A stretch of 64,000 bases of DNA from Psilocybe cubensis (lineage: Eukaryota): the NCBI GenBank assembly GCA_017499595.2, contig CM038999.1, positions 186,001-250,000 of the forward strand, read 5' to 3'. The first letter of the stretch is position 1. The number at the start of each line of letters is the position of its first letter. Positions 5,986 through 56,775 of this stretch are shown piece by piece. Position numbers and translations under genes: made by a program. The notes under the pieces were generated by a model that made no database searches, had not been told where the DNA came from, and saw only the letters and a program-made list of their open reading frames with translations.

Positions 5986-5993
5986 AAAAAAAG

Positions 5994-19028: not shown

Positions 19029-19041
19029 TGGTCTTGTCAAA

Positions 19042-20453: not shown

Positions 20454-20883
20454 TAGACGACACGTCTACACTACATAATCGTTTTACGTGGCCTCTATAG
20501 ATGTTACACAGGTTGAATTCATGTAAATAAAACACGCCTACGTGTATAGTCTATGCTCGCCCAAATATATTGCTCGCCCAAGTAGCATGAAGGCGACGGG
20601 GAAACCGTAACGTGACTCCGCTGAGTCAAATGATTGTGTCCGCTGAGCAAGGTCTGCAGGGGCCGTTTCCGCTGTGCGGGAACGCTGTGTCCGCTGAGTA
20701 AAGGTCTACCAGAGTGTGTACAGTACAGCGATTCCGCTGGACCTCTGCACCTACACACTGTGTAGACTGCCCCATTTGGATAAAATCCTCACCGGGCCAG
20801 CGGATCCGCCAGAACGTTATACACACCACACTGTGGGCGTCCCGTGTAAGGTACGGCACAGCACAGTGTAACAACTGACCCTG

Positions 20884-23800
20884 GATTCGTAGCGCGCGTC
20901 GGGGACAGGTAACGGATGAAGCGGGCCCGTTGGTTTTGAGGTGCGGTCTTTATTCCTCTGGCATTCCACGCAAGAAGGAATGTATGCTGACTCGAGGTCT
21001 CTGCGCATGTTGGGCCAGTAAAAAGATCCACGCAGAGCTGCGTAGCTCTTGTCAAAGCCAAAGTGGCCTAATGAGTTGTGTGCGAGGGAAAATAGTAGCT
21101 CGCGCAATTGGGTGTCGGACGGAATCACTAGGCGTCCTCCCACATACAGGAAACCGTCGGTCTCGGTGGCGCCTGGCACACTGCCAGCTGCAATGCCTTC
21201 GCGTAATTGCTTGCAGAAGTCATCGGTGTCGTATGCAGCTCTTATGCCATCGAGCAGAGAAGGGTCGGTGGCAATCTGGAGTGTAGCGCCTACCCAGAAA
21301 AGGTCATGTTCGTTGCGTGGAGAGCGTGCTGGTGATTTTGACAAGGAGGTGCGTGTATGCGCAAGCGCGCACGCTGCGAACGCCGGTGATGGTGTTTCGT
21401 CTGGCATCCTAGACAGCGCATCGGCCACTGAGTTGTCCTCCCCACGGACGTATACAATCTCGAAATCGAAGTCTGCGAGGATGTTTATCCAGCGCTTCTG
21501 TCGATTGGAGGTATCTTTTTGGTTTTCAAAGAACTCTAGAGTGCGGTGGTCTGTCCTAATCTCAAATTTGGCGCCCAGAAGGTACGTGCGCCACTTCTTC
21601 AGTGCCTTGATAATAGCAAGGAGCTCCAGCTCATGTGTGGCATGGTTCTTTTTGGCGGTGTTCAGCTGGCACGAGTCGTATGCAACCGGCCTTGCTGTCT
21701 CCCATGTCTTGCCAAAGCTGAGAACTGCGCCTGTCCGTCGCTTGCTGGCATCGGTGGTAAGATATATGTTTTTGGAGGTGTCCTCGTAGTCTATGACCGT
21801 CAAGCATTCTGCGCTGGTGACAAGCAGCTTGATGGCATCGAATGCGGTCTGGTGGGCTTCTGTCCAGCCCGGAAATTCCTTGTCATATTCTTTGGCTGTG
21901 AGCGGCGAGAGGATGGCTGTGTGTTCAGCGAGTGCCGGAAGGTAAATGGCGAGATATCTGGTGAGGCCCAGAAAACCGCGGACATTCGATGCAGTGGTGG
22001 GTGTTGGCCAGTTGATGACGCGGTCGCACTTTCGAGGGTCAGCTGTGATGCCTTCTGCGGAAATGTGGTGTCCTAGGAAGTCAACTGCGTCACTCCACAA
22101 AACTGTCTTGCTCTTGTTGCAGTACAGTCCTGCTTGTTCGAGCGCCGCAAGCACCGCTGCAATATTGCGTGCGTGCTCCTCCTCCGTCTGGGACCAAATG
22201 ATAATGTCATCGAGGTAAACATGGCAGATTTTTCCTATGAGATGTCGCAGCGCACCCGTCATGCGCCGCTGGTGTGTTGAGGGTGCATTACAGCCTCCCA
22301 TCGGCATAACAGTCCACTTGTATAGACCCCAGGGTGTGCGCACCGCTGTGAGGTGTATGTCATCTGGGTGTACGCAGGTCTGGAAAAATGAGTTTGTCAT
22401 GTCCAGTTTTGCAAAGATTTTTCCCTTCCCACAGTCCGCCAGAATGTCTTCGACGCGTGGTAATGGGAAGTTGTCTCGTATCGTGTTGGCGTTGAGCTCG
22501 CGGTAGTTGTTGACCCAGCGCGGTGGAATTGTGTGGTCGGGCACGCCATTACGCAGCTTGGAAATAATGAAAGAGGGTGAGGAATGTTTGGATGAGGAAG
22601 GTCGCAGCCTGCCGGCGGCAAGGTGTTCGTCCAAAAGCAGTTTCCAGCTGTCCTGGTGCTTCTTGGGTGTCGAATAACCTCTACCCCAAACGACCTTGTT
22701 GGTATCCTTTAACCGTATGTGGTGATAAATCTGGTCCGGTACACCTGCAATTGTGTCTGGGAGACGCAATGGGAAAAGACGGTCCCACCTTTTCTTGTCG
22801 CGTGCATCATATTCTGCAAATCTCTCGCCCCTCTCGAGGGACTCGAGCTTCTTGGTGACTGCCGCCGCTACCCCAGGCTTCAAGCGTGTGCCGTCAAGCA
22901 CTGCGGGCGGTAGGGCATCAAAATTAATGTTGGTAGGTAGAAGAAATAGACGAGGGCGTGGACAGCGGGGAGGAATAGGTGGAGGTACCACCCAATCCGG
23001 CTGCCAGACTCGCTGTGGGATGTTTGGGGATACAAGATCATAGCCAGATGACTTTTGAACAGCGGTGCGTGCCGCCGCGTCGATTACAATCTCTTCAGCA
23101 GAAAGAAATGACATTCCTAATATAATAGGTACAGGCAAGTCTTCACAGATTTTTGCAAAAATTGTTTTTGAAATCCACGCTCCATTTCCCGAAGTCAGCA
23201 CCAGCTTCGCATATTCCCTACAGACCAGAGGCTCGTCCGATAATGAACACAGATTGTCCTCCGCGCAAGGCAGAGGAAGACGAGGCAGGCCGAGCAAGGC
23301 AGCTGTTGAGCCGCTAATCACTGTGGAGGGGCAACCAATGTCAAGCAAGGCTTTGAAAGACAGAGGAAATTCGGAAATGGCAGGTCCGGTTGCCTCCACG
23401 TTTGCGTAGAGGTGTGGGACCGAGAATGTGGGATGGGGTTTGGTGGTGGAATCAGTGGGAGATGGTACGTACGTGTCTTCGTCCGCATAGTCTTCAGACA
23501 CGGCGGACATACCAACAAATGCTACAGGAACCCGCGTTTTTGCTTCACGCGCGCTCTTCTCTGCTAGCGCCATCTCTCGCGTAAGCGGTTTGTAGGTCAA
23601 CCAGTCGGGCCATGTGTTGGTCTTTGTCATTGGGCAGTCGAAGGACTTGTGGTCCACAAAGAACTTGCGGCAGCGTGTGAATCCGCTGAACTCGTGGAGG
23701 AGTGCGCGCTCCTCAGAAGTCAGCTTGGTGCTGTCCCTGTCGGAGGACTTGTTGTTGTAGGAACTCGAAGTTGACGTGGAGGTGTTGTTGGAGACTTCGC

Positions 23801-24737
23801 GGTTGTCCTTGCGGTCAGAGAGGTGGCTGAGGAGAGACTTCTTCTCCTTGCTGGCCGAGAGTTTTGCATCGAAACGCTTGTCCTCGCTGCGCAACTCCTC
23901 GTCGAGGGCATGAATAGCATCTGCCCATGTCTTATAGCTGGCATCCTCGGAAATGGGGTTGGTGTGAAGTTTGAGCGAGAGGGCGTGACGAGTGTTTGCT
24001 TCCAGGAGGTCACGGAGAGCACCCTCTGTAAAGGCATGCTTCTTGGATGAGGTCAGCAGAAGTGCATTGAGATTCTTGATCTCGATGCGCCAATCAACAA
24101 AGCGGGTGCTGTCTGGCTGCTTTGCCGAAAGAATCTGCTGTTTGATCTGATGCGCCCAGTTCTTGTCAAGGACTAATTCGGCGAGTTCTTTCACATACTC
24201 GTCAAGGGTGAGTTTGTCAATTCTGTCGGAACCGCTCTGGTACCACACCTGTAGGCGGGGCTCCAGCATGGCATCGGCAACATAACTAACAATCTCCTTG
24301 GGTTCCTTGCCTGAGTGCTTCATGAATCGTCGGCATGCGTTCGTCCAGGTGTGTAAGACCATGGGCGTGATCTTCCCCGCGGTGAGCATGGGGCAGTCCT
24401 TCAGCTTGGTCACCTTGACCTCGGCGAGCGCTGACATTTCCGAACTGGGTAAGAAGTGGCGGTGGCGGTGGCGCTTATTGATATGAGCAGTGATGGTAGC
24501 AAGGGAATCTGATTCGCTTGAGGAGCTGTCAGCTTCCCGTTTTGGTAAGAGAAAATTGATTGAGGATTGCGTGGGCGACACAACGGACTCGGATGGTGTT
24601 GGAAGCGCCGACGAATTTCCTACTGGGGACAGTGGTTGTTCTATCGACGGGATACTCTCCTGCTGCGATTCGTCGTCTGTGAAGAAACCTTCGATTTCTA
24701 GGGACGCCGGTGATTGCGGCTCGGGAGACGGTGACAA
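20884..24737 (-). pseudogene. gag-protease-RT-RNase H-integrase N-terminus of Gypsy B (single ORF, cut by KDZ-1)
   Basis: 1306-aa ORF with ALLDIG, YLDD, TDASKRRTGAVL/ELELLAI/TDHRTL/ADALSR (RNase H) and H..GH..CVEC integrase Zn finger; ends at the TSD. Confidence 0.94.
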
Positions 24738-26552
24738 GGGTGGGAGCGAGGTGGTCGCCCTCCTTTTGGACTCCTGTCGGGTGACGAGAGGAGTAGGTAT
24801 GGAAGGTTTACGTGACAGTGTGATGGACGGAGAATTTTCCTCGGTGATGAGCCGGGGGAAGAAGTTGTCGATGTCAAAAAAAAAGTGGAAGGCTATCTGG
24901 TAAAGGCAGCCTCACTAACAGTAGGTTGGACTCAGGAAACCTGGAAAGACAGGACAACAATGTCTTCGTTCCGTGTGGTAAGAGACCAGTAATACAGCGT
25001 GTGTAAACTACGTACCTTCGTTCCGTGTGGTAAGAGACCAGGAACAAAGGTAAAGGAAAACAAAATTTGTGTCTACGGAATCATGTAATGTGTGTGTGTT
25101 GATGCGTGATCACTATGTGTCTAGAGGGTGTTTGTAAAAGGGTAAGTCTGGAGGTAAATTCTGCAAACCTGACATGTGTATGTATCATTCTGCGTCTATT
25201 GAGTCTTGAATATGGTGTCTCCCGTCTGAAGTCTGGAGGACACCAAGCTGAGAAACGGCAACCCTTACCACGCGTACGTTGGTAATGTAGACACCGACAT
25301 GTTGGTGTAATACCATCATGATGTCATAACATTAATATCTTTCTAGTTGAGGTGCTTGGCAAGGTGGATGTATGCATTGACAATAAGTACGTTCCGACTC
25401 CATCTGGTAGTAGGTGCATTGGTAAATCTGATTTGTCTACATGACAATGTAACTGTGAAGATGAGAGAAGCATGATCTACAGCATTTTGAGGTCAATATG
25501 TCATATGTATGTACATATATTATATAATACGAGAACGAGGTCCAAGCGAAATGGAGTTTATACCTAACGGGTGCACTGTGTGTCTAGAATATACATAACG
25601 GGAAAGATAAAAAGTCATGATGTTTAATGATTGGTTGGTATAGGACCAGCGCAGTGCGCTCGTCGCTGACTTCCGGTCGGGATAGAAGGATATCAACGAT
25701 GCGTTGGTGTCCATTCTTCTGTGCGAATTCAAGTGCTGTATAACCATTGATATTTCGCAAATTGATGTCAATGCCAGGAACTATGAGGAGGCGCTTCACA
25801 ATGTTAATGTGTCCATGTTGAGATGCCCATATAAGCGCCGTGGTGCCAAATTTGCTTTTGGTATTTACATCGACCTCCAGGAAACCAAGAAGGGTATCTA
25901 CAATAGAGAGGTAGTCTTTTTGTGCCGCCAATATAAGAGGCGGAAATATATCTTGGTAATGGGCAGTAGTAGCAGTATTGATATCTGGGAGAGTTAACAA
26001 TTGTTTAACCACATTAGGTTTGCAATTCACTAATGCCCATGTAAGTGCTGTATTGCCATCCTTGGTTGGAATATTTATGTACACGTCCGGGAATTCAAGG
26101 AGGGTATCCACAATGGAGTCATGCCCACTGAATGAGGCACTCATAAGAGCTGTCAATCCTGTTTCATTCTGTGCATTAATGTTGATGTTGGGGACCAACA
26201 ACAGGCGTTTAACCACATCTAGATAACCATTTCCTGATCCCCATATAAGTGCTGTATCTCCAAGTTTGGTCTGGATATTTATATCCACCTCCGGAAAAGA
26301 CAGGATGACATCCACAATAGAGCAGTGATTGAGTGCCGAGGCATATATAAGAGCCGTCCATCCACCTGGGCCCTGCGCATTAATATTAATTTCCGGGACC
26401 GACAACAGGCGCTTGACAACGTCAAGATAACCATTGCATGATGCTGATGCAAGTGGCGTGCTTTTAAGTTTGGTTTGGATATTCACATCCACCTCCGGGG
26501 ACCCAAGAAGAGCATCCACAATGAAGCAGTTTCCGATACTCGAGCCAAGTAA

Positions 26553-27290
26553 AAGAGCTGACCAACCATCATTATTCTGTGTATTGACAGAGATTCCCGG
26601 AACTGACAATAGGCGCTTAACAACATCAAGATGACCATTGGCTGATGCCCAAGTAAGTGCTGTGTCTCCAAATTTGTTTTGGATATTTACATCCACATCC
26701 AGAAACGAAAGGATGGAGTCCACAACAGAGCAGTACCCATAACGTGAGGCATATATGAGAGCCGTCCATCCATTTGTGCACTGTGTATTAACATTGATTT
26801 GCGGGACTGACAATAAGCACTTAACAACATCAACATGACCATTGCTTAATGCCAGTGTCAGTGCTGTGTTGCCACATCTGGTTTGTAAATTTATATTCAC
26901 CTCCGGAATCGCCAAAATAGTGTCCAGAGTTGAACAGTGACCGAAACGTGAGGCAAGTACAAGAGCTGACCAACCATCATTATTCTGTGTATTGACATAG
27001 ATTCCCGGAACTAACAATAGGCGCTTAACCACATCGAGATGGCCATTGGCTGATGCCCAATTAAGTGCCGTGTCTCCAAATTTGTTTTGGATATTTACAT
27101 CCACATCCAGAAACGAAAGGATGGAGTCCACAACAGAGCAGTACCCATAACATGAGGCATATATGAGAGCCGTCCATCCATTTGTGCACTGTGTATTAAC
27201 ATTGATTTGCGGGACTGACAACAGGCGCGTAACAACGTCAACATGACCATTGATTAATGCCAGTGTCAGTGCTGTGTTGCCAGATTCGGT
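26553..27290 (-). repeat. Recent 408-bp (four ankyrin) internal duplication in NLR 1
   Basis: aagagctgaccaaccatcattattctgtgtattgaca at 26553 and 26961 (offset 408 = 4 x 34 codons), with long near-identical continuation. Confidence 0.85.
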
Positions 27291-29803
27291 TTGGATATTT
27301 ACATCCACCTCCGGGAAAGACAAGATGGTGTCCACAATTGAGCAGTAACCAGAACTCGAGGCAACTATAAGGGAGGTCCATCCTTGGATGTTTTGTGCGT
27401 TGACATGGATTTCCGGAACTGACAAGAGACGTTTAACTATATCGAGATGGCCGCTGTACGATGCCCACATCAGTGCGGTGTCCCCCACTTTGGTTTGCAC
27501 ATTAATATCCGCTTCCGGAAAAGCAAGGATGGTATCAACAATAGAGTAGTAGCCTTGACGCGAGGCGGAGGTAAGAGCCGTCCATCCTTCAATAGTCAGT
27601 GCATTGACATCGATTTCCGGCACAGATAACAAACGCATGACCCGTGATTAATGCACATATTAATGCTGTCAGACCACGTTTGTCTTGCAAATTTACATCC
27701 ACCTGTGGAAAACAAAGAAGGACGTCCACTGCGGGGCAGTGACCCTGTGCAGAAGCATACATGAGAGCCATTGCTTTGTAAGAATCCCGACCATTGACAT
27801 TAATGTCTGGGGCAGCTAAAAGACTCTGGAGAACATCAACGTGACCATGACTTGCGGCAAACATAAGCGCTGTGAGTCCACTGCATTCAAAACATGTGTT
27901 TCTGAGATCCATCCCGTTAGGGAAGGAATCCATAGTCGGCGGATGGTCATTGCTTCCTCTGTTATATTCGACCAGTGTGGAACCTGGATTGTTACCCAAA
28001 TTGACGTCAATGCCAGGGATGGTTAAAAGACGTTTGACAACCTCTTTCTGACCTGCCGATGAAGCAAGCATAAGTGGTGTCATTCCCTCAGCGTGTTCAA
28101 CGTGCCTAGTGTCCAAATACCTTAGTTGACAGCGAATTAACTCGTACAATTGCTCTGATCCTATTATGTATACATTGGGGTTGATGATTTTTGATGTAAA
28201 AAGGATGTCGATAATGGGCACATAGCCCTCAACTGTAGCACGGACAAGGGCAGTGAGACTTTGCCGACCGGATATTTCCATCCTGAATTTTGAGATCATG
28301 AACAGAGCCTGTGCAATACTGTTGTGGCCACGAATTATTGCAACAGATAGAGCCGTAAGCCCATTGCTGTCCCTCAAGTCGGGATCAAGTCCAGGGACTC
28401 CTAGAAGGCTTTCGAATATTTGTAAAGAATTCTTGGTGGCAGCAAGTAGGAGTGCAGTGTGTCCGTTGTCGTCTTGAGAGTTCACATCAATACTAGGATG
28501 TTGGAGTAAGAGTCTAGCGACATCTGTACAATCTTTTAAGCAGGCGTATAGAAGTGACGTGCGTCCATTCAGATCGGTGGCATTGATATCAATGTTGGAG
28601 CAAGCAAGCAGGGCGCGGACAGTGTCAATGTTGCCTATATGTGATGCATGCATGAGAGCAGTAGTGCCTCTGACGTCCTGGATATTCGGATTAATTTTCC
28701 TCATCGAAACAAGTGTGCGGATGATACTGATTCGATTAAGAATGGACGAGTACATTAACGCTGTAAGGCCCCTTTTGTTCCATAAATTGAGATTGATGTC
28801 TTTGTGAAGAAGGAGCATGTTGACAATTAAGTGATGGCCTTCCTTACACGCGAGAATGAGCGCAGTGTCCCCGCTGTTTGTCTGTACATTTACGTCAATA
28901 CAAGTAGATTCGAGAAGAGACTTGACCACTGTGGTGCACCCATTTAGTGCAGCAAGTGTGAGAGGAGTATGCCTCTTGGTCGTGCGAGAATTGCACGAGT
29001 CTTCCCAGCAGAACGGAACCCGAAGACCATAGTAAGCAATGACATGGCCAGGAGTGATCCAACTGAAACCAATGCGAGAGTCAAACAACGGATAATTGGG
29101 GGTATGAAGCACAAAATCAACCAGGATTTCCGTGGGGTAAGACTCTGCATCACACTTGCCGACGTGAAAAGTCCAATTCTGATACGCATAGTCGAGGAGA
29201 GGTGCGTCCTAAGATTTCACAAGAGCTTCAAAGGACGCATATGACAGCTTGTCTAGCATTGTGAAGCGGAACGCAGTAAGGTAAGAAATGCAAGCCTTTC
29301 CAAGAAATGTATGCAGTGCTTGGATCAGCTTCTCAGGATGATTATTCAAAAACTTGTATGCTGTATGGTCTAAACAGGGAGGTTGTATGATCAACATGGA
29401 TGTCCAATCATCACTGTAAGTCAAATGTAACTCACGGACGAGGCGCACAGTTTCACTTCGGGGCAGAATTTCAATGATCCCACAGGACGAAGTGCTAAAC
29501 ATGTCTTGTATAGGAATGTCCCTTGCGTGGAACGAATTCTCCCCCTCCCGGATAGCAAGTGCATGTTGGAGCTCGGCGATTGTTAATGGACGACGAGCAT
29601 TCATAATCCACGTCATGGCACGTTTTGCAAATAATGGATACTCGCCCTGTTGGGAATCAATCCTGTTCATTATGGAGAGGTACATTGATTGCACGTCGTC
29701 AGGGAGTCTGTCCAAACTGTTTGATAACAAGGACATGGTGGTGTATCCCTGTAAGGACTGTGACTTGAGCACCGCAAGGAGGAACCTGCAAGATGTGTCA
29801 GGA

Positions 29804-31846
29804 CATCAACTAAACAGACAGTAGATTACAATGCAATGTAAACCAATACAATAATTTTTTAGTCTTACAAATCCACCCAATTTTCGGGGCCCGGTTTACA
29901 ATGTAAAGCAAAAGTTTTATTAGGTTAGAAAGTGGTCATAATTATTCAATTTAAATTTTTATTCATTTGAGTAAGTAGTAGGGACATGTTGGCATCTCAC
30001 CCCATTTATGGGTTGTTGGGGCAATGTGTGTACATTGAAAGTGCATGCAATATCAGACTAGTGTGCATGCACGTTCTCCTTCCCCACCTGCAGACCAGTG
30101 CAGTGTGCCAAGGATGGGGTGCTAATACCCATCAGACGATTATAAAAATGAAAAAGGTAAACACTTCTTCTCAGAAAGCAGGATGAAGGGCTTCTCGAAC
30201 TCGACGCGTTGGGACTTGGTGTTGGTGATGAAGTAGAGTGAAATGTAACCACGGTCGAAGCACATACCCTCGGTGATCTCAATTTCGTCCTCAATCGTCT
30301 TTCCCTCCTTTCCGACCTTCTCCATCGCCTGAGCAATCAATCCTCTAACGTGGGCGTCACCGTTTGCGGAAATAGTGGCTACCTGTGCAATTTCGGCGGT
30401 TGTCATGATAGTTTTGGCGTGTGCAGAGAGGAAAGAGACAACGCGGTCGACGGCGGCCTGAGACCCACGGCGCAGGTCCATGGAGTTGCATCCAGCTGCA
30501 ACGTTCTTGACACCTTCTGAGTAGATGGCACGCGCAAGAACAGTGGCGGTTGTCGTGCCGTCTCCAGCAATCTTGTTTGTTTTCAATGCAACATCTTGAA
30601 TCAGGCTGAACAAATCTACTTAGCACTTTGCACAAAAACAACAAAAATGAAAAGAAGTACCGAGCGCCCAGGTTCTCAAACTTGTCTTTGAGAGTTATAG
30701 ACTTTGCAACCATCACACCGTCTACCAACAACCAGACCCTCGTCAGCAAACAAGCTGCCTCTCCCAGAACCACGGAACACGCACCCTTAGTGATTTTTGG
30801 TCCACCGTACGCCTGCTCAATGATCACATTGCGACCCTTGGTCCAAGTGTCGCACATCGACACAACTATCCGAGCTATGTGAAATAGGTGCCAGTGGTTT
30901 TGACTTGGACTCAGACTTGGAGATGTTTGTCAAACACGATCAGCAGATGTCGGAGCTTCAAAATCAAATCAAGCGGAGCCTGAACTCACTTGAAGTCCCG
31001 TTGCAAGCAAATGATCACATCCACTTTGTTTACTTTCTTCCAACCACCACCATCCTCTGCCCACGGATATACCTGGGGGCAAGGTACGTGTATTCATTGT
31101 GATGTCTCCTTCTCAAACTAACATCATACAGACCTTCCTTTAACCAAAACAAGTTAGTAGATTATACTTTTTTGGTGAGTAATAGATGATTCTCACTCGG
31201 TGCTCATCAGTACTCACCACATACTAGGACCAACTATCTTGAACACTTGGGATGAAGGGTCAGTATTTTAGTCTCTATTTAGTGTGCTTTACACTACTAA
31301 CATTACTTGTGGAAGGTCCCGGACAACCAGACACTTGGATACAGACTTGAAAGCATGTACATGTGAGTATATGCGCTTTTTATTGGTTTTTGATTCATTT
31401 TTTGATGCATATATTTTGCTCCTCCTTTGCCCGTACCACTTCAGCTGTTCCGAATGCTTGAAGCTGCCTTTTCCCGTGTGTCTTCACCATTCACACCTTC
31501 TTTGTGTCATTGAGTGTAGGAATTGTCAGCTTCAGGTTCTGTTTTGGTGTTGAGGGTCTGGAGCCATGCACACTAGCATGTGGGTTCAATGTGTCTTACA
31601 TATATAGTTGTACTATTTTTATGAATAAATAATCTATTTTTCATTATGATTTTTGTGTGCTCCAAAAGGCATTACAATTGCAATACCCAAAAATATTGTA
31701 AACCTCAAAATATTTTATTCATGCTGCAATATTTCCGTTTTCTTACAACATTTCAAGAGCGTTGTAACACAGTGCGAGAATTTTGAAGAAAAAAATATTT
31801 TATTGGGTTTACAATGCTTTGTAATCTACCCGCACTTTTTATGATG
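29804..31846. mobile_element. Non-autonomous TIR element (CACTA/CMC-like) with captured host gene fragment
   Basis: CATCA...TGATG ends and imperfect TIRs with core GTAGATTACAAxGCAxTGTAAACC. Apparent 2-bp TSD GA. Subterminal TTACAAT/ATTGTAA repeats. Removal restores a 52-nt intron matching the 51-nt intron of NLR 2. Confidence 0.75.
30165..30842 (-). pseudogene. HSP60: Chaperonin 60 (GroEL family, HSP60) gene fragment with two introns
   Basis: [91 protein letters not shown]; truncated at both ends. Confidence 0.93.
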
Positions 31847-33769
31847 GATATGTTTGAATCGTCCCAAGGGAAGGTGACGCACATTCCGTTGGAAATGCTC
31901 AGAATCTTGTCACATATCTTGTTCATAAAGTCTGTGTGTTGTCCCACTATCCGAGCGACGCTGGTCGTAATCCGTATGCTATTGTGAAGAAATAGACGAA
32001 TATCTTCTTGATTCTGGTCCCCAATGGTCATGTGTATAGTGTCCGGTGGAAAAATCGAAAACCTTGAAACCAATCATTCGTGACGTGATCAACAGTGACA
32101 CGGGGAGGTCTCGAAGAATAGACACGAGCTCAATTTGTTCAAGATCCGGCAACTCGTCCAGACCATCCAGTACAACGCGAACGTTTTTGAAATACTTTAT
32201 CATATTAGAGAGTATTGAAACCAGTTCTGTTTTCGATGGACGGCTTCGTCGTACTTGGTGAGCATCGTACACTGTAAGGACATGCTCAGCAATCGTTGAA
32301 ATGCTCGAGTGATTTGCAAAAATCTGGGCAATTAGGGATCCCAAATATTGTGAAATTGTCCAGGTTTTATTGTGTCGACAGTACAAGAAGATAGCGGCAT
32401 CGGTGCCTGGAGCATCGGAGAAGCGCAGATTCATGAGGTAGTCAATAACAATTGACCTAGCATTTGCGCATAAGGAATAAGTTTAGGATTTGTTATGGAA
32501 ACTTACGCAATGATTGTCTTCCCCAATCCAGCTATCAACTATGTGATTAGATGCTTCAAGAACTAGAGTAAAATGAGACTCACACTTTCCATCTAATAGC
32601 AGAATACACCTATATCCGGATATCCAGTCCTTGAATTCCGTGGAAGACAAAAACCATTTGCCAGTTCCCATTGTGCGCTTTGAAAGGGTATCATAGTGAA
32701 ATGCTTCTGATGTGATGGGAGTTAACCATTCTACAATGTTAAGAATTTCTGCACATATCATCAGGACTTCGGTGTAGGTTTCCAAATTTTGGTGCAAATA
32801 CCCTGATTTCGGCAATACATATCTCCTTTCCCCATGTACACGGTTTCACCTGCAACGATTGTTGCATTATGAAGATTGGTAAAGTTGGCATTGGTGTATG
32901 CTCGCAATCCTGGGATGGTTAATCAATGTACTGTCAGCGGAGTACTCAAACCACACAAAGGTTTAATGAACCAGTACCTGTCGAGGTCACCGAGTTGTTT
33001 AAGGTGCTCATTACTGACAATCCAATGCCAAAGTGACCGAGAAGTAAGGGTGTTGACTGTATTCGCCTGCCGAGAGGGTGGTTGGGGTGGGAAGGTCTCT
33101 TCGCGTTTCTACGCCCTGGACCCGTTTAAACTGCCCTTGTTGAATCGTGTGAGCGTAACCAAAATAGTCCTGATGCAGTGTTTTTATAAATATAGAGCTC
33201 CCTTCATCATCCCAAACCCAGCGACATACTGTCAAACCGTGCACCAACAACAGTGCCGCAATGATGCCGGGTGCTGTTCAAACCTCTCCCCAGTGCCGAT
33301 GCTGCCGCGTATTCATGCTCAGGTTAAAGCTCCGCCTAAGTGATGTGCCGTACGGCAACGACCCGCTTCATGATTGCTCATTCGTTAAAGCAAACTCTAC
33401 CGTTATACGTAGAAAATGCATCCCATTCATTGTTTTTTTACGCATGCATATCATGATGGTCGCTATTAGTATCAGCGGCATCCGTCTGAAATAGATCACA
33501 GCTACATCTGTTCTTGACACCTGTGCTGTCACCCGAATTATAACAAACTCATGCCACAACACTTTTGTATGCCGTGCTGCTGCCTACAGCAGCTGTAGAA
33601 CTGTCAGCAATAAAAAATGATCTCTTCGCACCATGCATCTACGAACATCCCAACGCGTGGGAAGATGATGAATGAACAGAATTTTCCACACAACAGATGC
33701 AATGTGTAGTATCAGAAAAAGGAAAAGAAAAAGAAGAACATGGTTGAATTGCTTTATGTCCAAGCGCCA

Positions 33770-34175
33770 CTGAAAATGCGGACAAACATAATCCATTGAT
33801 CCAACGTTATTCCATTCTTCCTCATTGATCTTATAGCTGCATTTAACGATTTAGCAAAATCTTTGGAACATATATTTGTAAATTGCCTGCGCAATGGTTG
33901 GCCCATCTTCGTCGTTCATCTCCCACATTGTACCTACCACGCTTCGGAACTGAACTGAACTGCAACGCATGCGGCAAATGGATGCTTTCGTCTTGACGTA
34001 CGATTGTCTCCCATAGCGCTGCAACATTTGGCGAACGGCATTTTTGCTCGCAGCCATGAAGCTCGACCGACGCCCTGGAGGGATTGTCTTTACTGTCTAA
34101 ACGGCCATAGTACGAAAAATGAACCTATGAATGTTGCTTTGGAAGTGCTGGGACTGAGTTGCGATCTTTGCTTAC
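33770..34175 (-). pseudogene. Degenerate 3' fragment of a CHAT protease gene (paralog of 59252-62140)
   Basis: RSVVGTMWEMNDEDGPTIAQA is identical to the intact gene; nucleotide similarity to ~59260-59720 with several deletions. Confidence 0.88.
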
Positions 34176-37100
34176 TTGCGTGCCCGCTTGTGAATTGATT
34201 ATACAGCGTTTAGGAGTCGTATGTTTTGGACACCGATTACGGTGCTGTAAAAAATAGGAGGCACCACCGATTGTAAGTATGTATACAGCATGAGCACAAA
34301 CCACCACAGCGTCCACATGTTGGCGTTTGCTCAATGGGCACCAAGCACATCAATAACGACGACCAGCCAAACTTGCTCAATGTAATATCCAATTCCAAAT
34401 TCACTTATGAAGTGTACCCAGCCTCTCCCAATTCTTCTAAGAATCTCCTCCTTCCATTGCCCCTGAAATCCTCTCACTGTCACTTGACTGCATCACGCCC
34501 AGTATATGACAGGTTCACAGCAACAAGGAGGGAATGAAAAGAGAATAACAAAAGAAAAGGCGATATGTGTGGGATGTATTGCAGATGAAGAAGGAAAAGG
34601 TAAGGTAATCCAAGCCAAGCGGGTGGAAAGGACTGCGCGCAACGCAGCACGCCGGCCAAATTCGCAAAGCGAGTCTCAGCGCAGGTATAACAACATGCAT
34701 TCAACGTACAACCCTCCTGCACCCGCGCTGACGCTGTGTTCCTTGAATCGATCAAACACACTGTCCAACTTATGGCACCCGCTACGCTTCACTCCTCTTC
34801 CTATACATGTGGTCCTCATTTTCCTTCTCATTCTGGTGATATTGCCCGCTATCCGGCTGCGCCTCACAGAGTCTATCGAGATTGTAGACAGACGCTCACA
34901 CACACCGAGCTCATACCCGACGCAACTCTGTTCAGCACAGCCACTTCTCTGTCCTACACCTCTGTCAGTGTCTGCTCAGCGGGTGCCTCCCCCTGGTCCA
35001 AGAGAAGCATGGACGTCAAACATGCGGATGTGGAACTTGGGTGTTGCGGTGTGAACCACGCGTGTCTGGTGGTTGAATTGAGTACCACTCGCGAGTTCCA
35101 GAAATAGTACGGCAACATTGTCCCACCGCGTCTCATCCATCTCCGTCGTCGGATGCTTCTCTCCGCATCTTGGGTTGTCGTCGTCGTCGATGGTGGTGGC
35201 CCGTCAGAAGTGGTTAGTCACGCGTCATGGTTCACCCAGTGGTGGTGCCGTATTTGGTCTTGTTATGCACGGGGCATAAACAAAAATAGCATCATGCACA
35301 GTTTTCTTGCTTGGCTCTTCCACTGCTTACCTAGATGCGGGTCTTCAATTCCAAACTCATCCCAAGCGAGAGCTGAATCTACTATGATCCTAAAATCAGT
35401 AGGGAAGAACTAAATGAAAGAAAGAAACTCGCCAAAAGATTGTTACGGTTAGTCCGAATACCCCTGGGACGTGTTTTTGCCGCTAGTACTGGTCCTACTA
35501 TTCAATCCTGGCTGCCCTTCTTCCCTAGCGGACGCCTCTTTCTCCTTGGTGGTGCGTCAATTTCTTTAGTGGAAACATTATCGAAGTTAATAGATTGGAT
35601 AGAAAGCGGCTGTCATGTGGTCGGTCAACGTGTGAGAAGACAGAGTATTGGATGGGTCATTTTATTTGACAGCGAGACCGGGTCCAAACATTCATCCTGG
35701 CACTGTATCAAGGCTCGCGGCTAGACTCTAGTGCACGTATGAGAATGCTTTCCTGGGACTGCATCGATTAACCCGTTAGTCCCTCATGATTCATAATAGA
35801 TAATCATATCCAGTCTGTTTTGCGAATTTCATTCAACCTAACTCACTTTCTTTTTTAACTTTCTTTAGAATTTGAGCTGCATAAAACAGGTTTTGTCGTT
35901 ATCACACCAACTCCTCCTCATAAATCTCGATATTCTGTACCGACGCGACACGACGCGTGTGGACGTTGACATTAAGACGAATCGAGTCCTCGTCAAATCC
36001 TGTCCAGATTTGCACGTACTCCTACTGGGAAAACACACCAACAACGTGCGTACGGTGTGAGTATCACTTCTCAGTAAGAATTAATTGTTTGTGTATCCTC
36101 GACCGCTTGCCTGTATCAGCACATCCTCCATCTTCACATCCTCCTTCTGCACAGTCATTTTGTCTATATGAAAGTATAATTGCGAATAGAAAAGAAGTCC
36201 AATATACAGTATAGTGAGGCATATATGTCATCTGTATGTACACATATTATATATACCGCGAGAACGAGAGACAAGTGAAAAGGAGTTAATACCCAAAAGT
36301 TGTACTTTTTGTCTAAAATATGCATAGTGGGACAGAGAAATAGTCTGCGGTTTGATGATCGGCTGGTATAGGACAAGCGCGGTACGCTCGTCGCTCACTT
36401 CAGGACGGGAGAACAGTATATCCACAATGGATTGATGCCTTGTCGTTCGTGCCATTTCGAGTGCTGTATAGCCATTGATGTCTCGCAAATTGATATCCAT
36501 CGCAGGGAATGTTAGGAGGCTTTTCACTATATCAATGTGTCCATTGACCGATGCCCGTGTAAGTGCTGTGTTGCCGTACTTATCTTGGATATTTATATCC
36601 ACCTTTGGAAAACCAAGGATAGCGTCTACGATAGAACAGTAACCATCTCTTGCAGCATACATGAGAGCTGTACATCCATCAATATTTTGTATATTGACAT
36701 TGGTATCCGGGAAAGATAAGAGGCTCTTAACAACATTAACATGACCCCGATATGCTGCCAATGTAAGCGCTGTTTCGTCATTGTTGGTTTGGATATTTAC
36801 ATTCACATTCTGACTACCAATGAGGGCATCCACAATAGAGCAGTACCCATCTGTAGAAGCATTTATCAGAGCTGTGAGTCCATCGGTATTTTGTGCATTG
36901 ACATTGAGTGGTGGGACGGACAAGAGGCGCTTAACAACATCAAGATGACCTCCATATGCTGCCAACATAAGCGCGGTGTCTCCCAAGTTGGTTTGGATAT
37001 TTACATCAACCTTTTGAAAGCCGAGGAGGGCGTCCACTACAGAGCGGTGACCATTTGCTGAAGCAGCTATCAAAGCTGTGAATCCATCGGTATTTTGTGC

Positions 37101-39293
37101 ATTGACATTAATTTCCTGGGAAGACAAGAGGCGCTTAACAACATCAAGGTGATCATTGCAGGATGCAATCATAAGCGGTGTATTCCCGTATGCGGTTTTG
37201 ATGTTTATATCCACCTTCTGAGAACCAAGCATGGCATCCACAATAGAACCATAACCATTTGCCAAAGCATAATTGAGAGCTGTGAATCCATCTGTATTTT
37301 TTGTATTGACATTGACTCCCGGGACAGACAAGAGGTGCTTAACAACATCAAGATGACCTTGATATGCTGCCCATATAAGTGCTGTATCGCCAAATCTGTT
37401 TTGAATATTTACGTCCACCTCCGGAAAACGCAGAATTTCGGCCACAATCGAGCTGTAACCATTACGGGAAGCAAATATGAGAGCTGTAAATCCATTGGTA
37501 GTTTTAGTATTGACATTGATGTCTGGGACAGACAACAGGCGCTTAACCACACCGAGATGACCATGATATGACGAGTGGATAATGTATGATGGGCAACGAC
37601 CAGTATCCCCAGAAGAAGGATAGTTCATCAATGTCGCATAAATGAGAGCGGTATATCCATCACGGTCACGTCCGTTAACATTGATTTCTGGGAGTGTTAA
37701 AAGGTGCTCCACCACATCGATGTGTCCGTGGCCAGCGGCAAACATCAGCGCCGTGATTCCACTGCCCTCAAAACATGTATGTTTGAGGTCTACCGGAGTG
37801 AGTAACGGATCCATAATTGAATGTTCGTAGCTCCCACCAACATAGGAGGCCAATGTGTAACTGGGCTGATTACCCAGATTCACATTGACACCTGGTACAG
37901 CTAATAAGCGCTTGACAACCTCTTTGTGACCTGCACATGAAGCAAGCATAAGTGGCGTCATTCCTTCAGCGTATTCTATTCGGTGACGTTCTTCCGAATA
38001 TCTCAGCTGATCGCGAAATAACTTGTACAATTGCTCCGATCCTGTTACGAATACGTTTGGATTGATGTGTCTTGATGTCAACAGGATATCGATAATTGGA
38101 ACATGGCCCTGAAGAGTAGCGCGGACAAAGGCCATGGTACCCTTATGGTGTGAGATATCCAACTGGATTTTAGAAATAGGAAGAAGAGCCTTCACAATAT
38201 CGTTGTGGCCACGCAGTACTGAGACAGATAATGCAGTGAGGCCATGGCTCTCCTTCAGGTCAGGATCGAGGTTAGGAACGCCCAGCAGCTCTTTAACAAT
38301 TGGTAAGGAGTTTTTTGCGGCAGCAATTAGCAGCGCAGTGTGTCCATTTTCATCTTGGCAGTTAACTTTGATTCCAGGCGTCCCGATCAAGAGGCTCGCG
38401 ACTGCTGTACGATCCTTTAAGCAAGCGTACAGAAGTGCAGTACGTCCATTCAGATCCGTGAGATTGATGTCGATGTTAGGGGAAGCAAGCAGTGCACAGA
38501 CAGTATCAATATCACCAATATGCGAGGCATTCATCAGGGCAGTAGTGCCTCTGACGTCCTGAGAATTCGGATTGACTTTCCTTGTCGAAATAAGGGCCTT
38601 GATTATATCAACGTGTCCAAGGATGGCGGAGTACATCAATGCTGTGAGGCCTCGTTTGTTGCATAAATTGGGGTTGTTGTCTTTACGCAGAAGAATCAGG
38701 TTAGCAGTGAATTTATGGCCCTCCTTGCAGGCAAGAATGAGTGCAGTATCTCCGCTGTTGGTCTGTGCATTTACATCGATACAATTGCATGACAGAAGGG
38801 CCTCGACCACTGTGGTGCACCACATAGGACAGTTGTATAATTACGTACCTTACGATATATTTAAAAATGATGAATTAACGTAACATACGGAGTGATTTAC
38901 AATAAGTACTAAACTAAAAATAGCCCGTCCCCTACGGTCCAGCTGGAACGGCTAATTTAGCCCTTGCCACACGGGCCATTTATAAATAAATGGCCCCCTC
39001 GCTGGCCCATGACGGACCGTCATATTTGACCCGTCAGCGCATCACGGCAAAATTCGGAGCCGACTGCTCGCAGGACTCGTCCACGGGCCGTCATATTCTG
39101 CCCGTAAATGAATCACAGGATCAGTCCAAGCCGTAATATTAGCTTGCGGTACCTTATCTACTCCGAAAGCTATGCTTGACGCGGGAAAATATGAGCCGTG
39201 TTTGAAGAACCCGGGACATAACATACCCAAAAATTACATTAATCAGTGCCTCCGATAATCGATTCACCTACCAACCCACTGTCTTCAAACATA

Positions 39294-40534
39294 ATGAGTC
39301 AGCCCATTGATATGACCCGAGCCCTTTCTACTTACATGCAATCATACATGGCAAGCAAGGTCAACAATGGAATGCCTACATTGATTCCGGAAGATATGAC
39401 TGCCGAAACATTGTATGAGTGTAATCTAGCTGTTGAAATAATTCTGGAGGCCCGCTCAAATCAAGGTAAGTGCTAAAGAAATTTACCCAAAAGTCAAGGT
39501 CTCAGACTGCCTTATACCACATTAGAGCAAACTAAATGGAATGCAAACAATTATATTGAACACTTGTCAGAACGTTGCACTGGAAGAAACGATGCTGTTG
39601 AAGACAATCTAAAAAATTTATTTCCACCAATACATCTTCCAATGCTGTATCGGTGCAAACCCGGAACTGTGGCTGATAGTGAGGGGAACATTCTGGCATG
39701 GTATTTGCCTGGAATCTTGACGGAAAGACGGGTGGTGAGTGCTTTAAATGAATGTCAGGTAAATATCTGAAAACCTCAGAATTCTACATGGAAAATGCTA
39801 CAAAATATTGAAGGTCTCATTCGTATGACCCCTTCATCAACTAGCTGGAGGGCCAACAAAACTTACTTCAGACATGAGTCTGCCTGGCTGCGCCCAGGAA
39901 ATGCCAACTTTTCACCTGCTTGGTTTCAGCAGGGGCATGAGGTAGGGTGTTTTATTCCTTCTGTGACTTATTGATTTGAATGCTTTGGCAGCAATCCAAT
40001 CCGTTGGAGGTTTCGGCTGATCTCACACATCCCGACGGACTATCATTTATTGCCGGTCTAATGACTACTTCGGCATTGATCGGAGCCATCCTGAGTATTA
40101 TTCATCCGGCACAGTTTCGGGCCGGAATTGAGTTCCTTGAGCGGATATCGTCTCAACCCGAGATCATTCACAAGGCTGAACTTTTGAAGCATATCCTCAC
40201 TTTCTGGACTTCCCCCTTTGGCGTCATCAGTGTCATCAGCAATAGGGACACACCTTTTCATCGTGATAACGGGTCTTGTCACCCATGGTATGATTTGCTC
40301 ATGCCATTGGGCAACTATGAAAATGGGAGAATTGAACTTCCAGGAGTTGGCATAAGGTACAAGTATGATCCAACAACATTATTTGCAATTTCTGGAAGAG
40401 TGCTACAGCACGGGGTAATATGTAATGGAGACAGAGCAGTTTTAGCCTTTTATATGCGTAGATTGGTTTTGGAACGACTAGGAGTTAGCAAAGCGGGATG
40501 GTCAACTTCCTCCGATATTCTTCAAAACTTGTAG
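39294..40534 (+). CDS. TET/JBP-family 2-oxoglutarate/Fe(II) DNA dioxygenase, four exons
   Basis: ILAWYLPG, SWR, SPAWFQQGH, NRDTPFHRD (HxD), LQHGV (distal His), DRAVLAFYMR (2OG-binding Arg); no stops seen after splicing. Confidence 0.9.
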
Positions 40535-40548
40535 ATTTTAAATTGATC

Positions 40549-42330
40549 TCATTGCGAAGTATTGAAATTGTTATCTAAATTGTAACTACTGTCTTGATCA
40601 TCATCTTGATCTTCATCTTCATAGCTCCAGTCATTATGAGATTGTGTTTCATCATCAGAAACTTCTGAATCTTCCATGACGTCCGAGAACTCTTCAAAAT
40701 CTTCTTCATCTTCAATTTGTTCTGCCAATTGTTCTAAATAATCTGCAGGAACAGATGTGCCAGAAGAAGAGGAAGACGCACAGTCGTCATTATTTTCTCT
40801 ATAATTGTTCAAGGATGCGCGTGGATCCAGAACAAATACCTCGTTTGTGGAAGAACTGGAAGCCGAAACGGCAAAAGGTTTGACCGGGATGACGTTTGGA
40901 TCCGATGATTCGGCGGCAGTCTCCGGAGCCGTTTGAACGTTGACAACCCTCGATATTGGTGTAGAATACAGCCAAGGGGGGTGGAAAGGAAGCTCTTTCA
41001 AGGCGACAAATGAATAAAAGATGCCATTAATACAGAATGAGGCATCATTCATTTGAGAAAGAGCATTGTATTGCATTTCGGATAGACGAGCGTTCCAGCC
41101 ATCAGATTTTGGGTGTTCTGGATGCTGAAGCTTGTATTCGTCGGGGAGTGAAAAGTTATTCTCAAAAGGAGGCCTCCCATACTCGTAAGCTATGTTTTCT
41201 ATGATTGAATATCGGCCCACCAGGTCAGAAAAGTGGGCTACGGCTTCATCAGCAGTTTTCCTCATATCTGCAAGGTTAAGACGAAGATTGGCCAAAGATC
41301 TCATAACACGTGTAAAAATTGGCTGCCCGCATTTGGGGCAGTAGGGAGGCCTATGGTCCGAGATGGCAATGGGAGACATATGATCCCGAGTATTGGCAAC
41401 CGGCGGGGCAGCGGAGCGGCTTCCAGAAGGTTGTTTGGAGGCCTGAGGTCCTGAAGGAAAGCTATCCCTTGCCTTTGATGCTGAACCTTGTGGAGCTGTT
41501 TTTTTGGAACTTCCGGAGCTTTTTTGACGGTTTAAAGCTGAGGAAATTGACGAAATGGGGTGAGGGGCATCCGCCAAAGGTTGATCGGGGTAATTGGCTC
41601 CCGGCGTGGGCCTTTCGGAGTGCTGTGCTGCCGCCGGAGCGGCGGAATGGGTTTGTGCCGCAGACTCAGATGGACCACCTTTCTTGCTCAACTTGAGCTC
41701 TTCTGCATATCGCGGGAGAACAATCTATGTAGATTTATTAACAAACAATTATATAAAATAAATATGGTTCTATAGGTACCTTATTCCAAAACTCTCTGAC
41801 CTGAGACTCAATTGTGACATCAGAGACTTTCCAATCTTCGTCGGCTTTATGTCCAGGTTCCCACCAGTAGCCCCATGGTTTTGTTGATTTTAAAATATCG
41901 TTATCTTCCTCTGCTGACCAGCACTGGTTAAGTGATTGAAAGAGAACAGCATTATGATGGGGGTTGCTATTGAGAACAGCATGGACAGATTGGTTAAGGA
42001 TTTCTGCTATGAAGAAAGAGGTATCGACAGCAAATCCATTTATATAACAATATCCAAGAACTCTGAGCAATATAGCCTGCAACTTTATTTGAATAAATGA
42101 AGAATTAAAAGAATCATCTCACTTACTGCCTCTCTTTCCAACAATGAGAGCCATCTTGCCAAAGTGTCCGGCGGCACGCTTGATGCCGAACTAAGTAACA
42201 ATCGGTATCCAGTTCGGATCCGAGCACCACACAAATGAACATGCAGCTTTGCTAAAGCACGTCTTTCATCGTAGCTGAGAAGATAGTGTTCATCTTCAGT
42301 AGGGGGATTGAAGATACGAGGAAGGCTCAT
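40549..42330 (-). CDS. KDZ-2 conserved downstream gene (helical N-terminus, CPKC, acidic tail)
   Basis: Three exons (ORFs 42085, 41738, 40549); starts 77 bp after the transposase stop; positional homolog of 18374-19028. Confidence 0.65.
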
Positions 42331-42406
42331 GGTGGTCTTGTGGCAATATTGATCAGTTAGTTGGAGAAATATATAGATTACAAGTCTAGTGAATAGAACA
42401 GATGAC

Positions 42407-46393: not shown

Positions 46394-47274
46394 GGAAGTG
46401 GGAAGCAAAGTGTCTGAGCACCTGTGAATTTCATTCTAAATACAGTATTCCATTGATAGCTCTTCACAATGTGCATTAAATTTATTTTAGTCTACATAAC
46501 CTTTTCGAGGGAGGAAATAGCTTTCATATGATCTATCTTGCAAGGAATTTGGAGAACTGTAGCCAGTTTTATGAACAAGTTTCATTTTGGATGTGCAGAA
46601 AATGGTCGTGATCCCAACAGAAATGCATAATGTGATCTACAATGACCTCTCAAAACCACTCTCCTGAAGTATTTTGGCCATAACTCTTCATGCACATGCT
46701 CCCTACTCCTCCGGCATATATCATATGAAAGGTATTTTAAATGTCTATCCAATGATAGTGTTTAGCAAATTTAAATCCATGTATGTGAGAAGATATATGC
46801 AATTTACTGAAATGTTGCCCAATTTGAACTTGCTGGGATTCCAATTTCTTTGCACAAGAAACACAGTTTAGAGTACTTTACACAGACTCTTAGATATTCA
46901 CCGTTTCAATTTTTTTAAGATTGGAGGTGGAAAGTCATTTGCTTACTTTTACATTTTTAAACATTTCCATGTGAGATATAACAGTCTTATATACAGAAAT
47001 TCAATTAATACATATACAATTTACTGCTCTCAAAATTGTGAGAGGATAGAGAAAGAACTGGGTGAGCTATAGTGAATATACTTTGTGATTGTGTGTGATG
47101 ATGACAAGAGATGTTTGCTCGCTGTCCCCGACGTTTGGGCGGGATTGCCAGATTAAGTAGTTTCCCATGTCTTAAAATAGTAATCAAGATCAAAATCTTA
47201 TTTTATCTCCGGTTGGTGGTAGATTATTCAGTCATTCGTTGATAAGCTAATATGATGCCCATCCCTTTGTACAA

Positions 47275-54241: not shown

Positions 54242-56775
54242 ACCACAGAGCCGTTGTCGGTAAAGCTGCTTCCCGTCATCAGTTTCGGGGCAAAATGCTT
54301 TGGGAAACCACGGAGCCGGTGTCGGCAAGGCTGTACTTCCCGCAAGCAGTCGGCTCCGAATTTTGCCGTGATGCGCAGACGGGTCAAATATGACGGTCCG
54401 TCATGGGCCAGCGAGGGGGCCATTTATTTATAAATGGCCCGTGTGGCAAGGGCTAAATTAGCCGTTCCAGCTGGACCGTAGGGGACGGGCTATTTTTAGT
54501 TTAGTACTTATTGTAAATCACTCCGTATGTTACGTTAATTCATCATTTTTAAATATATCGTAAGGTACGTAATTATACAACTGTCCTATGTGGGTGCACC
54601 CATTCAAAGCAGCGATTGTGAGAGGAGTGTACTTCTTGGCTGTCCGAACGTTGCAAAAGTCATCCCAGAAGAACGGCACCCGGAGATCGTAGTATGCAAT
54701 GACGTGGCCTGGATTGAACCAATTGAACCCAATCCGAGGGTCAAACAGCGGAAAATTGGGAGTTTGGACCACAAAATTATGCACAGCCTCAGTGGGATAT
54801 GATTCTGCATCACAGTTGCCGATGTGAACCGTCCAATTCTGATACGCATACTCGAGTAAAGGAGCATTGTGAGATTTTACCAGAGCTTCAAAGGCAGCAT
54901 ATGGCAACTTTTCCAGTGTGGTAAAGTGGAAAGCAGTCAGGTAGGAAATGCATGTCTTTGCAATAAACGCGTGTGGTGACTGGATCAGATTCTCAGGGTG
55001 ATCATTCAAAAACTCGTATGCTGTATGATCTAAACAGTCCTTTTGTCAATACTGCCCCAACAATCGTGCAAATCTGGGGTGACTCACGGACAAGGCGCAC
55101 AGTTTGACTTATTGGCTGAATTTCAATGAGCCCACAGGACGAAGTGATAAGCGTATCTTGGGCAGGAATGTCTCTGTCATTGAATGTGCTCCCTTCCTCC
55201 CGCATAGCAAGTGCATGTTCGAGCTCAGCTATGGTTAATGGGCGACGAGCGTACATGATCCAAGTAATGGCGCGTTTCGCAAAGGACGGGTATTCCCCCT
55301 TTTGGGAATTAATCCTGCCCATAAGGGAGAGATACATTGATTGTACATCGTCGGGCAGTCCATCTAAACTATTTGATAAGCTTGTCATGGTGGTGTACCC
55401 CTGTAAGGACTGTGACTTCAGTGTTGCAAGTAGGAACCTAAAAATGAATCAATAATATATTTAAAATGTCATAGAGAAATTGACTCACATTCCGCTAGAT
55501 ATAGTCAAGATCTTATCGCATATTTCCTCCAGAAATCCCTTGTTTCTTCGCAGTATCCGAGAAACACTAGCCGTCCGTGGTATGGCATCGTGGAGAAATA
55601 GGCGAATATCCTCATGATTTTGGTCCCCTATGTTCATGTGTATAGTGTCCTGTGGAAAATCAAATACCTCGAAACCAATCTTTCGTGATGTGACCAATAA
55701 TGAAACCGGAAGGCCTCGGAAAATAGACATGAGTTCAATCTGTTCACGATCCGGCAACTCGTCCAGACCATCCAGTAAAAGTCGACCATTTTTGAAACAG
55801 ATTAGCATAGTGTAAAGTATTGTGACTAACTCGGTCTTTGAAGGTCTGCTTCGTTGTGTTCGATGCACATCATACAAGTTATGGACATCCTCTGTAACCG
55901 ACGGAAGGTGTCTGTACATTGTGAGCACCTGGCTAATCAGGGACCCCAAATAATTCGATATATTCCAGGCTTCGTTGTGTCGACAGTACAGGAAGAGAAC
56001 AGCCTCGGAGCCAGAGACATCTGCAAGGCAAAACCTCATGAGGTATTCAATAACAATTGCCCTAGTTTGTGTGAATAAGAAATAAATATAGAATTTGTTC
56101 ATCTAAACTCACGCAATAACAGTCTTTCCTGAGCCAGCAATTACACAGGCATTTAGTCGTGGCAATTAGTGAAACAAAATAATACTCACGCTTCCCATCC
56201 AGCAACAGGATACTTCTTTGACCAAACATCCATTTCTTGAATTGGGGAGAAGACAGAAACCACTCTCCAGTTCCCGGTGTTCGCTTTGAAAGGGTATCAT
56301 AATGAATTGATTCTGATGCTATCGGCGATAACCATTCTACAATATTACGAGTTTCTACACATATCATCAGGTTTGTCACGCAAATTCTGAGGGTTCTGCG
56401 ATAAATACCCTGATTACGGCCATGCACATGTTCATTTCCTATGTATACCGTCTCCCCTGCAACAATCGTTGGATTATAAAGGTTGGTGAAGCTAGCATTG
56501 GGATACGCCCGAAATCCTGCAACGGTCAGGCACGCTGTTAGCAGACAACTCGGCGCCCAGCAACTTGGCTGAAACCATACCTGTCGAAGCCACCGAATTA
56601 TGTGAAGTGTTCATTGATCGTCGAGAGTAAAATAATGGCGTTGACTGTTTAGGTCTGCCAAAGGAGATGATGGGAGGGAAGGCTTTCTTGAATTGGCTTC
56701 GGTGCTCCATTTAAGCATTATACTTGCTGCACTGCCCTCGCGTATTCAAGTTATCGCTGTAAGTGTGATAATTAA

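Follow-up and report, generated by a model that had tools for sequence, protein, structure and literature searches.

Introduction

Signalling from fungal NLRs through amyloid motifs has been shown in ascomycetes. In basidiomycetes it is only predicted, and hundreds of motifs on the receptor side have no linked effector there (Wojciechowski et al., 2022; PMC9815663). The closest described counterparts of the gene analysed here are five amyloid-like motifs of Agaricomycetes, denoted NLR05, NLR08, NLR22, NLR29 and NLR44, which together comprise 689 sequences in that study. According to the same source, dozens of such motifs are usual per basidiomycete strain and they virtually never lie beside an effector; its Table 1 lists no experimentally validated member of the five groups, and no effector-side or neighbouring instance. 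Two accounts of partnerless motifs are offered there: either many receptors share an unlinked effector, or the motif has a scaffold role. NLR-side and effector-side motifs are reported to be shared in four agaricomycete genomes (PMC9815663). The layout of a short peptide preceding an NLR is common and already published for Agaricomycetes (PMC9815663). A literature search, conducted largely outside subscription journals, returned no paper on the present gene and no experimental test of the Agaricomycete motif group.

Here we describe NLR1, a NACHT-ankyrin gene of Psilocybe cubensis, within a 64-kb stretch of DNA that was analysed as a whole (the window). An initial annotation of the window had proposed that the N-terminus of this receptor is only a short candidate amyloid signalling motif.

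The N-terminus of NLR1 is encoded by two exons

NLR1 gives Pfam matches to NPHP3_N, a winged helix and Ank, with many ankyrin repeats. A NACHT domain with Walker A and Walker B motifs is thus followed by superstructure repeats, as in fungal NLRs of the NACHT-ANK type; the Walker A motif is spread across a small exon. The N-terminus consists of 47 residues, which come from two exons and precede the NACHT lead-in (Table 1). The initial annotation had arrived at the same 47 residues by splicing an intron at about 32911–32977; the intron in fact runs from 32977 to 32910 and is one base longer. It had also placed the peptide directly before the NACHT lead-in. The two do adjoin, but only after removal of a second intron (32801–32749) that had not been named. 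If intron 1 is retained, the frame closes after 21 codons; use of an alternative acceptor at 32931 leads to a stop after 13 codons. Both introns recur at identical positions in NLR2, a paralog within the window, and both are spliced in P0003, a third paralog that is available as a public full-length gene model (the splicing of P0003, like that of P0039, is a gene-model prediction). Comparison with the paralogs and gene models indicates that the two-exon N-terminus and both splices are real.

Three P. cubensis NACHT-ankyrin models, JR316_0001579 (P0003), JR316_0013496 (P0039) and KAH9484709 (P0050), have the same architecture as NLR1, but are unnamed and carry no described N-terminal motif. The window allele of NLR1 is itself annotated only as P0127, a public P. 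cubensis model that is identical to a piece of NLR1. It is a 196-residue fragment that begins after the peptide and ends at the stop created by the frameshift in the 32050 region.

Table 1. Positions of NLR1, its paralog and associated features in the window.
Feature	Position	Strand	Remarks
NLR1 whole gene	25584..33011	-	NACHT (NPHP3_N type) and winged helix between a short peptide and ankyrin repeats; window allele is a pseudogene
NLR1 exon 1	32978..33011	-	start codon (ATG at 33011) and 11 Ser/Thr/Asn-rich codons; 26/34 bases identical to paralog
NLR1 intron 1	32910..32977	-	GT..AG, 68 nt, phase 1; placed alike in paralog NLR2 and model P0003
NLR1 exon 2	32802..32909	-	conserved peptide, residues 13–47; dN 0.17, dS 0.97 versus paralog
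Candidate amyloid-like motif core	32824..32907	-	residues 13–40; NLR05/22-type register from residue 15, HRAM-type register from residue 21
NLR1 intron 2	32749..32801	-	GT..AG, 53 nt, at boundary of peptide and NACHT lead-in; spliced alike in models P0003 and P0039
NLR1 exon 3	32584..32748	-	NACHT lead-in to start of Walker A; NPHP3_N match, tblastn with P0003
One-base insertion	32046..32052	-	frameshift in NACHT domain; absent in runs X8, X9, X12
2045-bp repeated element	29801..31845		inside NLR1 intron; carries cpn60/HSP60 gene fragment; absent in X8, X9, X12
Premature TAG	29209..29211	-	after winged-helix region of NLR1
Ankyrin-region frameshift	27630..27645	-	X8 and X9 contigs each with 14 gap letters there
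Proximal upstream region	33033..33227		TATA-like stretch; 195 bp deleted in some X8, X12 molecules
CHAT protease gene remnant, 3' end, broken	33749..34164	-	sole upstream sequence common to far upstream region of NLR2
NLR2 N-terminal exons	56409..56614	-	same peptide; NLR2 start at 56614
KDZ transposon (CxC2, Tet/JBP)	about 38821–54592		15.8 kb; splits NLR2 at start of ankyrin repeats

The peptide is conserved among paralogs

The exons of NLR1 and NLR2 are 76–77% identical (exon 2, 82/108; exon 3, 128/167; for exon 1 see Table 1). Identity is 56–59% in the introns (intron 1, 38/68; intron 2, 32/54) and 50% (63/126 columns) over the ∼ 110 bases upstream. Within residues 13–37 the two copies differ 3 times at the first, once at the second and 14 times at the third codon position, corresponding to a dN of 0.12 and a dS of 1.27. 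The resulting dN/dS ratios, derived from one pair of genes and few codons, are ∼ 0.18 for exon 2, ∼ 0.09 for residues 13–37 and 0.17 for exon 3. P0003 shares 28 of the 35 residues of exon 2 with NLR1. This pattern of substitution indicates purifying selection on the peptide (dN/dS about 0.1–0.2), about as strong as that on the NACHT lead-in.

NLR2 also seems to have lost the acceptor AG of its Walker A exon (near 56140). The KDZ transposon that splits this gene has inverted ends that are 98% identical and is flanked by a duplication of about 7 bp.

NLR1 belongs to a clade of agaric receptors with short N-termini

A phmmer search with residues 1–111 of P0003 yielded 3221 proteins at E ≤ 0.001, of which the best 150 were taken. 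Together with 34 other matches this gave 184 proteins, and N-termini could be cut out for 183 of them. Seventeen were labelled motif-bearing by eye against the alignments in PMC9815663, leaving out seven near-duplicates and two Psilocybe fragments. The NACHT tree comprised 90 rows of sufficient length, eight near-duplicates having been dropped. P0003 falls into an 18-member agaric clade (support 1.0) with named members from Psilocybe, Gymnopilus, Galerina, Coprinopsis, Ephemerocybe and Candolleomyces. A motif-type short N-terminus, as labelled by eye, is present in 16 of the 17 other clade members and in none of the 72 rows outside the clade. The P. cubensis paralog P0050 is the sister of P0003 in this tree and has its motif register shifted alike. 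With 47 residues before the lead-in and a place in an agaric clade, NLR1 has the short N-terminus that goes with the NLR05/08/22/29/44 motifs. The initial proposal of a short-peptide N-terminus is borne out to this extent: the peptide is conserved and is located where agaric NLRs carry amyloid-like motifs.

The region upstream of the start codon

The initial annotation saw no HeLo or enzymatic domain at the N-terminus, and indeed there is no Pfam match at E ≤ 1 and no conserved upstream exon. A longer upstream exon encoding a folded effector domain had been named as the observation that would speak against the short motif; comparison of the sequences upstream of NLR1 and NLR2 revealed no conserved coding exon with such a domain. 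A few features of the sequence could nevertheless be read as signs that the true N-terminus is longer and that an upstream exon adds an effector domain: a CAG lies 3–5 bases before the ATG, an upstream AG common to the two copies is separated from the ATG by 45 and 30 nt that are open and in frame, and another in-frame ATG occurs 33 codons upstream in NLR2. We consider this very improbable, since beyond about 110 bp the upstream regions of NLR1 and NLR2 share only the broken CHAT remnant (Table 1), upstream identity is 50% versus 76% in the exons, and P0003 and most clade members begin within 25–82 residues of the lead-in. Moreover, the TPR-CHAT gene before NLR2 terminates 2.6 kb away at a stop of its own. 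At most a short upstream extension of NLR1 would seem possible from these comparisons.

The TPR-CHAT protease gene upstream of NLR2 is intact (59252–62182, minus strand). Since a broken paralog of it lies upstream of NLR1, the CHAT gene and the NLR were duplicated as one unit. A CHAT-NLR fusion was rejected, since the intact CHAT gene terminates at a stop of its own and the one preceding NLR1 is broken. CHAT-bearing sensors occur in gasdermin clusters, as described in PMC12881547; no gasdermin match was obtained among the frames scanned in the window.

A 589-nt contig from run X14, which we guess to be RNA, matches 34558–35146 without differences. The site lies in single-copy DNA, lacks a long conserved frame and perhaps represents a small gene or a non-coding transcript. 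It was rejected as a first exon of NLR1 because no joint ties the contig to the gene; none of the X14 contigs covers the NLR1 exons.

Composition and predicted structure of the peptide

The peptide is Asn/Thr-rich, as first noted: 14 of the 47 residues (30%) are Asn or Thr, whereas 103 control NACHT linkers average 10% and do not exceed 19%. The G-x-x-V-Y sequence that had been reported is present at residues 32–36. The alternation of hydrophobic residues holds only loosely, its two-residue periodicity being equalled by 401 of 3000 shuffles. Charged residues are few (5/47), the strands are flanked by Gly, and one core residue is Pro in two of the three Psilocybe copies.

A single-chain model of the peptide has two short strands (pLDDT 60, pTM 0.24), and a fold search with it gave a best Z of 3.4 and nothing meaningful. 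Prediction of a four-copy complex returned no answer (score 0.02). Five matches were obtained when the PDB was searched with the peptide sequence (E 0.11–8.5), none of them an amyloid motif protein. The ESM Atlas held no usable match for the peptide or for a frame at 62977–63999.

These properties bear on the possibility that the peptide is not amyloid but a short β-strand or docking segment, motif-descended or not, which packs against NACHT or engages a partner through an ordinary fold. Such a segment would be consistent with the lack of significant two-residue alternation, the Pro in the core, conservation as high as that of a folded domain and a match to the published motif groups that is marginal (see below). 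The Asn/Thr-rich composition, the scarcity of charges and the Gly-flanked strands argue in the other direction, as does the position of the peptide, which is that of the canonical motifs in the clade, and we regard an ordinary fold as rather unlikely.

Comparison with published motif families

NLR1 resembles the NLR05/08/22/29/44 group in having a short N-terminus directly before NACHT in an agaric, no neighbouring effector and several paralogs per genome. The core of ∼ 25 residues is likewise rich in Asn, Thr and Gly, opens with aromatic-x-Asn-Ala and closes with small-Gly-acidic. It differs in that its second aromatic residue is advanced by one position, the central Gly-Gly is lacking and a second hydrophobic-Gly segment follows. 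Two registers can be laid over the core, an NLR05/22-type from residue 15 and an HRAM-type from residue 21.

A profile built from the 17 motif-bearing relatives scored 7.2 bits on the NLR1 peptide; all of 107 control linkers scored lower (maximum 4.1), and 20 of 2000 shuffles reached this value. The relatives themselves score 4.1–26.8 when each is left out in turn, three of the 17 at or below 7.2, which puts the NLR1 peptide in the low tail. The same profile gave 4.7 bits for NLR2 (252/2000 shuffles) and 3.9 bits for P0003 (158/2000). When four relatives that had been picked as bridging were removed, the score for NLR1 fell to 1.0 bit, which is chance (1105/2000). A profile of seven Psilocybe, Gymnopilus and Galerina relatives reached 14.2 bits, or 4.0 bits (238/2000) without P0050, and one of Psathyrellaceae relatives alone −0.2 bits. 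In the reverse test motif-bearing N-termini ranked above others (AUC 0.76–0.78), mostly by composition. Order-dependent similarity, measured against each sequence's own shuffles, had a mean z of 0.58 (n = 17) versus 0.09 (n = 112), a marginal difference (p = 0.05), and profile–profile comparison gave a probability of 1%.

In the NLR05/22 register, taken from the Gymnopus alignment in PMC9815663, NLR1 has 7 of 11 anchors, a count that 79 of 3000 shuffles and 2 of 107 controls also attain. P0050 has 8/11, the other two Psilocybe copies 6/11 and the relatives 6–11. The anchor columns were chosen by the analyst from Fig. I and Fig. H of that paper, and the best of the p-values are flattering, because there were several tests and choices were made after the peptide had been seen. 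All six near relatives found among the searched rows of its S1 Table are marked 'noasm', which denotes no motif. The sequence match to the NLR05/08/22/29/44 family is, on these scores, marginal and arises mainly via one Psilocybe paralog, P0050. Because the motif fit is weak and the near relatives are marked 'noasm', the case for homology is carried by position and descent more than by sequence score. The NLR1 peptide is both conserved and divergent and is probably overlooked by the published profiles, and this suggests that counts of such motifs in Psilocybe, Gymnopilus and Galerina are too low.

The initial annotation had suggested scoring against HRAM, PP and sigma. NLR1 has 5 of 9 HRAM anchor columns (again chosen by the analyst from Fig. 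H, a Sphaerobolus alignment), which is at chance level (2200/3000 shuffles); the counts are 7/9 for NLR2 (56/3000) and 6/9 for P0003 (318/3000). The likeness to HRAM, represented by NWD2 r0, is that a single motif stands at the N-terminus of a NACHT receptor (PMC9815663), and that residues 21–40 close with Val-x-hydrophobic-Gly, the next residue being Asn in two of the three Psilocybe copies. In contrast to NWD2-HET-S, NLR1 has no adjacent HeLo gene, its sensor is ankyrin rather than WD40 and the motif has no Pfam match. The peptide does not fit PP or sigma: the PP core NxGxQxGxN is absent by inspection, and no Pfam family was matched at E ≤ 1 in a scan that drops weak matches.

In a bolder reading the Psilocybe peptide would be a working amyloid seed of a new subtype, with a first half of NLR05/22 type and a second half of HRAM type, missed by the published profiles and switching on an unlinked HeLo/MLKL-like effector. 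We think this improbable. If it were true, the peptide would connect the NLR05/22 and HRAM families at the sequence level and, given both intact and broken alleles among natural isolates, would offer a first tractable test of basidiomycete NLR amyloid signalling.

A stretch at 63163–63240 (plus strand), within the open frame at the end of the window whose gene runs off it, has an Ala-aromatic-x-amide-Ala-x-Phe-x-Asn opening as in the NLR peptides. It is the only other match of a loose six-frame pattern, and its profile score is at chance (139/2000 shuffles).

Search for an effector partner and proposed role

Of 1955 six-frame stretches in the 64-kb window, a profile of the three Psilocybe peptides matched the two NLR copies and nothing else. 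Among 26 long frames scanned in the window, which extends about 32 kb to each side, none matched a HeLo or MLKL-type family, and the window holds no adjacent HeLo or HeLo-like gene with a C-terminal motif of the kind that accompanies HRAM. The 27 candidates from an effector search with the motif alone all had E > 10; since the search also missed the known positive P0003, it is uninformative. The initial annotation had drawn an analogy with NWD2, and in its strict form the analogy is not supported, because the window contains no adjacent motif-bearing effector. The lack of a linked effector sets NLR1 apart from NWD2/HET-S, yet it conforms to the basidiomycete rule described in PMC9815663. The NLR1 peptide alone does not reveal the missing partner.

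We propose, at what we judge to be about an even chance, that the peptide by itself makes up the N-terminal region of an agaric NLR of the NACHT-ankyrin type, that it is a divergent, Psilocybe-specific version of the NLR05/08/22/29/44-type motif, and that it acts as a receptor-side, amyloid-like seed for an unlinked effector. In an intact allele the ankyrin repeats would bind a ligand, upon which the NACHT domains would oligomerise; the clustered peptides could then stack as a β-arch seed, and this seed would convert a HeLo/MLKL-like effector that is encoded elsewhere in the genome and is common to many receptors. Anatomy, conservation, position and descent of the peptide are the results reported above, while the later steps of this scheme are taken from the NWD2/HET-S model as presented in PMC9815663.

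The same data could be accommodated by a homotypic scaffold, in which the peptide stacks only with its own copies on the oligomerised receptor and stabilizes the complex, so that there is no separate amyloid effector. The strong conservation of the peptide among paralogs is consistent with this, as are the lack of an effector-side copy in the window and of any effector-side instance for the five group motifs in PMC9815663, where a scaffold role is proposed for partnerless motifs. The motifs that are shared between the NLR side and the effector side in four agaricomycete genomes (PMC9815663) argue against it, and we hold a scaffold to be unlikely.

Alleles of NLR1 in the window and in other isolates

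Two frameshifts, a TAG and the 2045-bp insertion interrupt the reading frame of NLR1 in the window (Table 1). Judged from its sequence, this allele is a recently broken pseudogene and cannot make a full receptor. A comparison with other isolates (four of 15 listed sequencing runs: X8, X9, X12 and X14) showed that at least the insertion element and the first frameshift are missing in X8, X9 and X12. The frameshift in the ankyrin region is probably a 14-nt loss in the window allele, because the X8 and X9 contigs carry 14 gap letters at this site. The 195-bp deletion upstream of the gene, which ends 21 bases before the start codon, is possibly a second, independent null allele.

With both copies in the window broken, and the 195-bp deletion upstream in other isolates, the peptide might be taken for a functionless relic in a dead gene. 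This is hardly credible, given that dN/dS is far below 1, that the P0003 model is full-length with 28 of 35 residues identical, and that the insertion and first frameshift are missing from other isolates. The description is true of the window allele, not of the motif, and the seed role proposed above would apply to intact alleles.

The 2045-bp element is high-copy and has a short subterminal inverted word; the cpn60/HSP60 fragment it has captured contains an intron. Three copies or pieces of Ty3/gypsy-type LTR retrotransposons lie at 1165–8300 and 20817–25158, and a second KDZ element occupies about 9000–19500 of the window.
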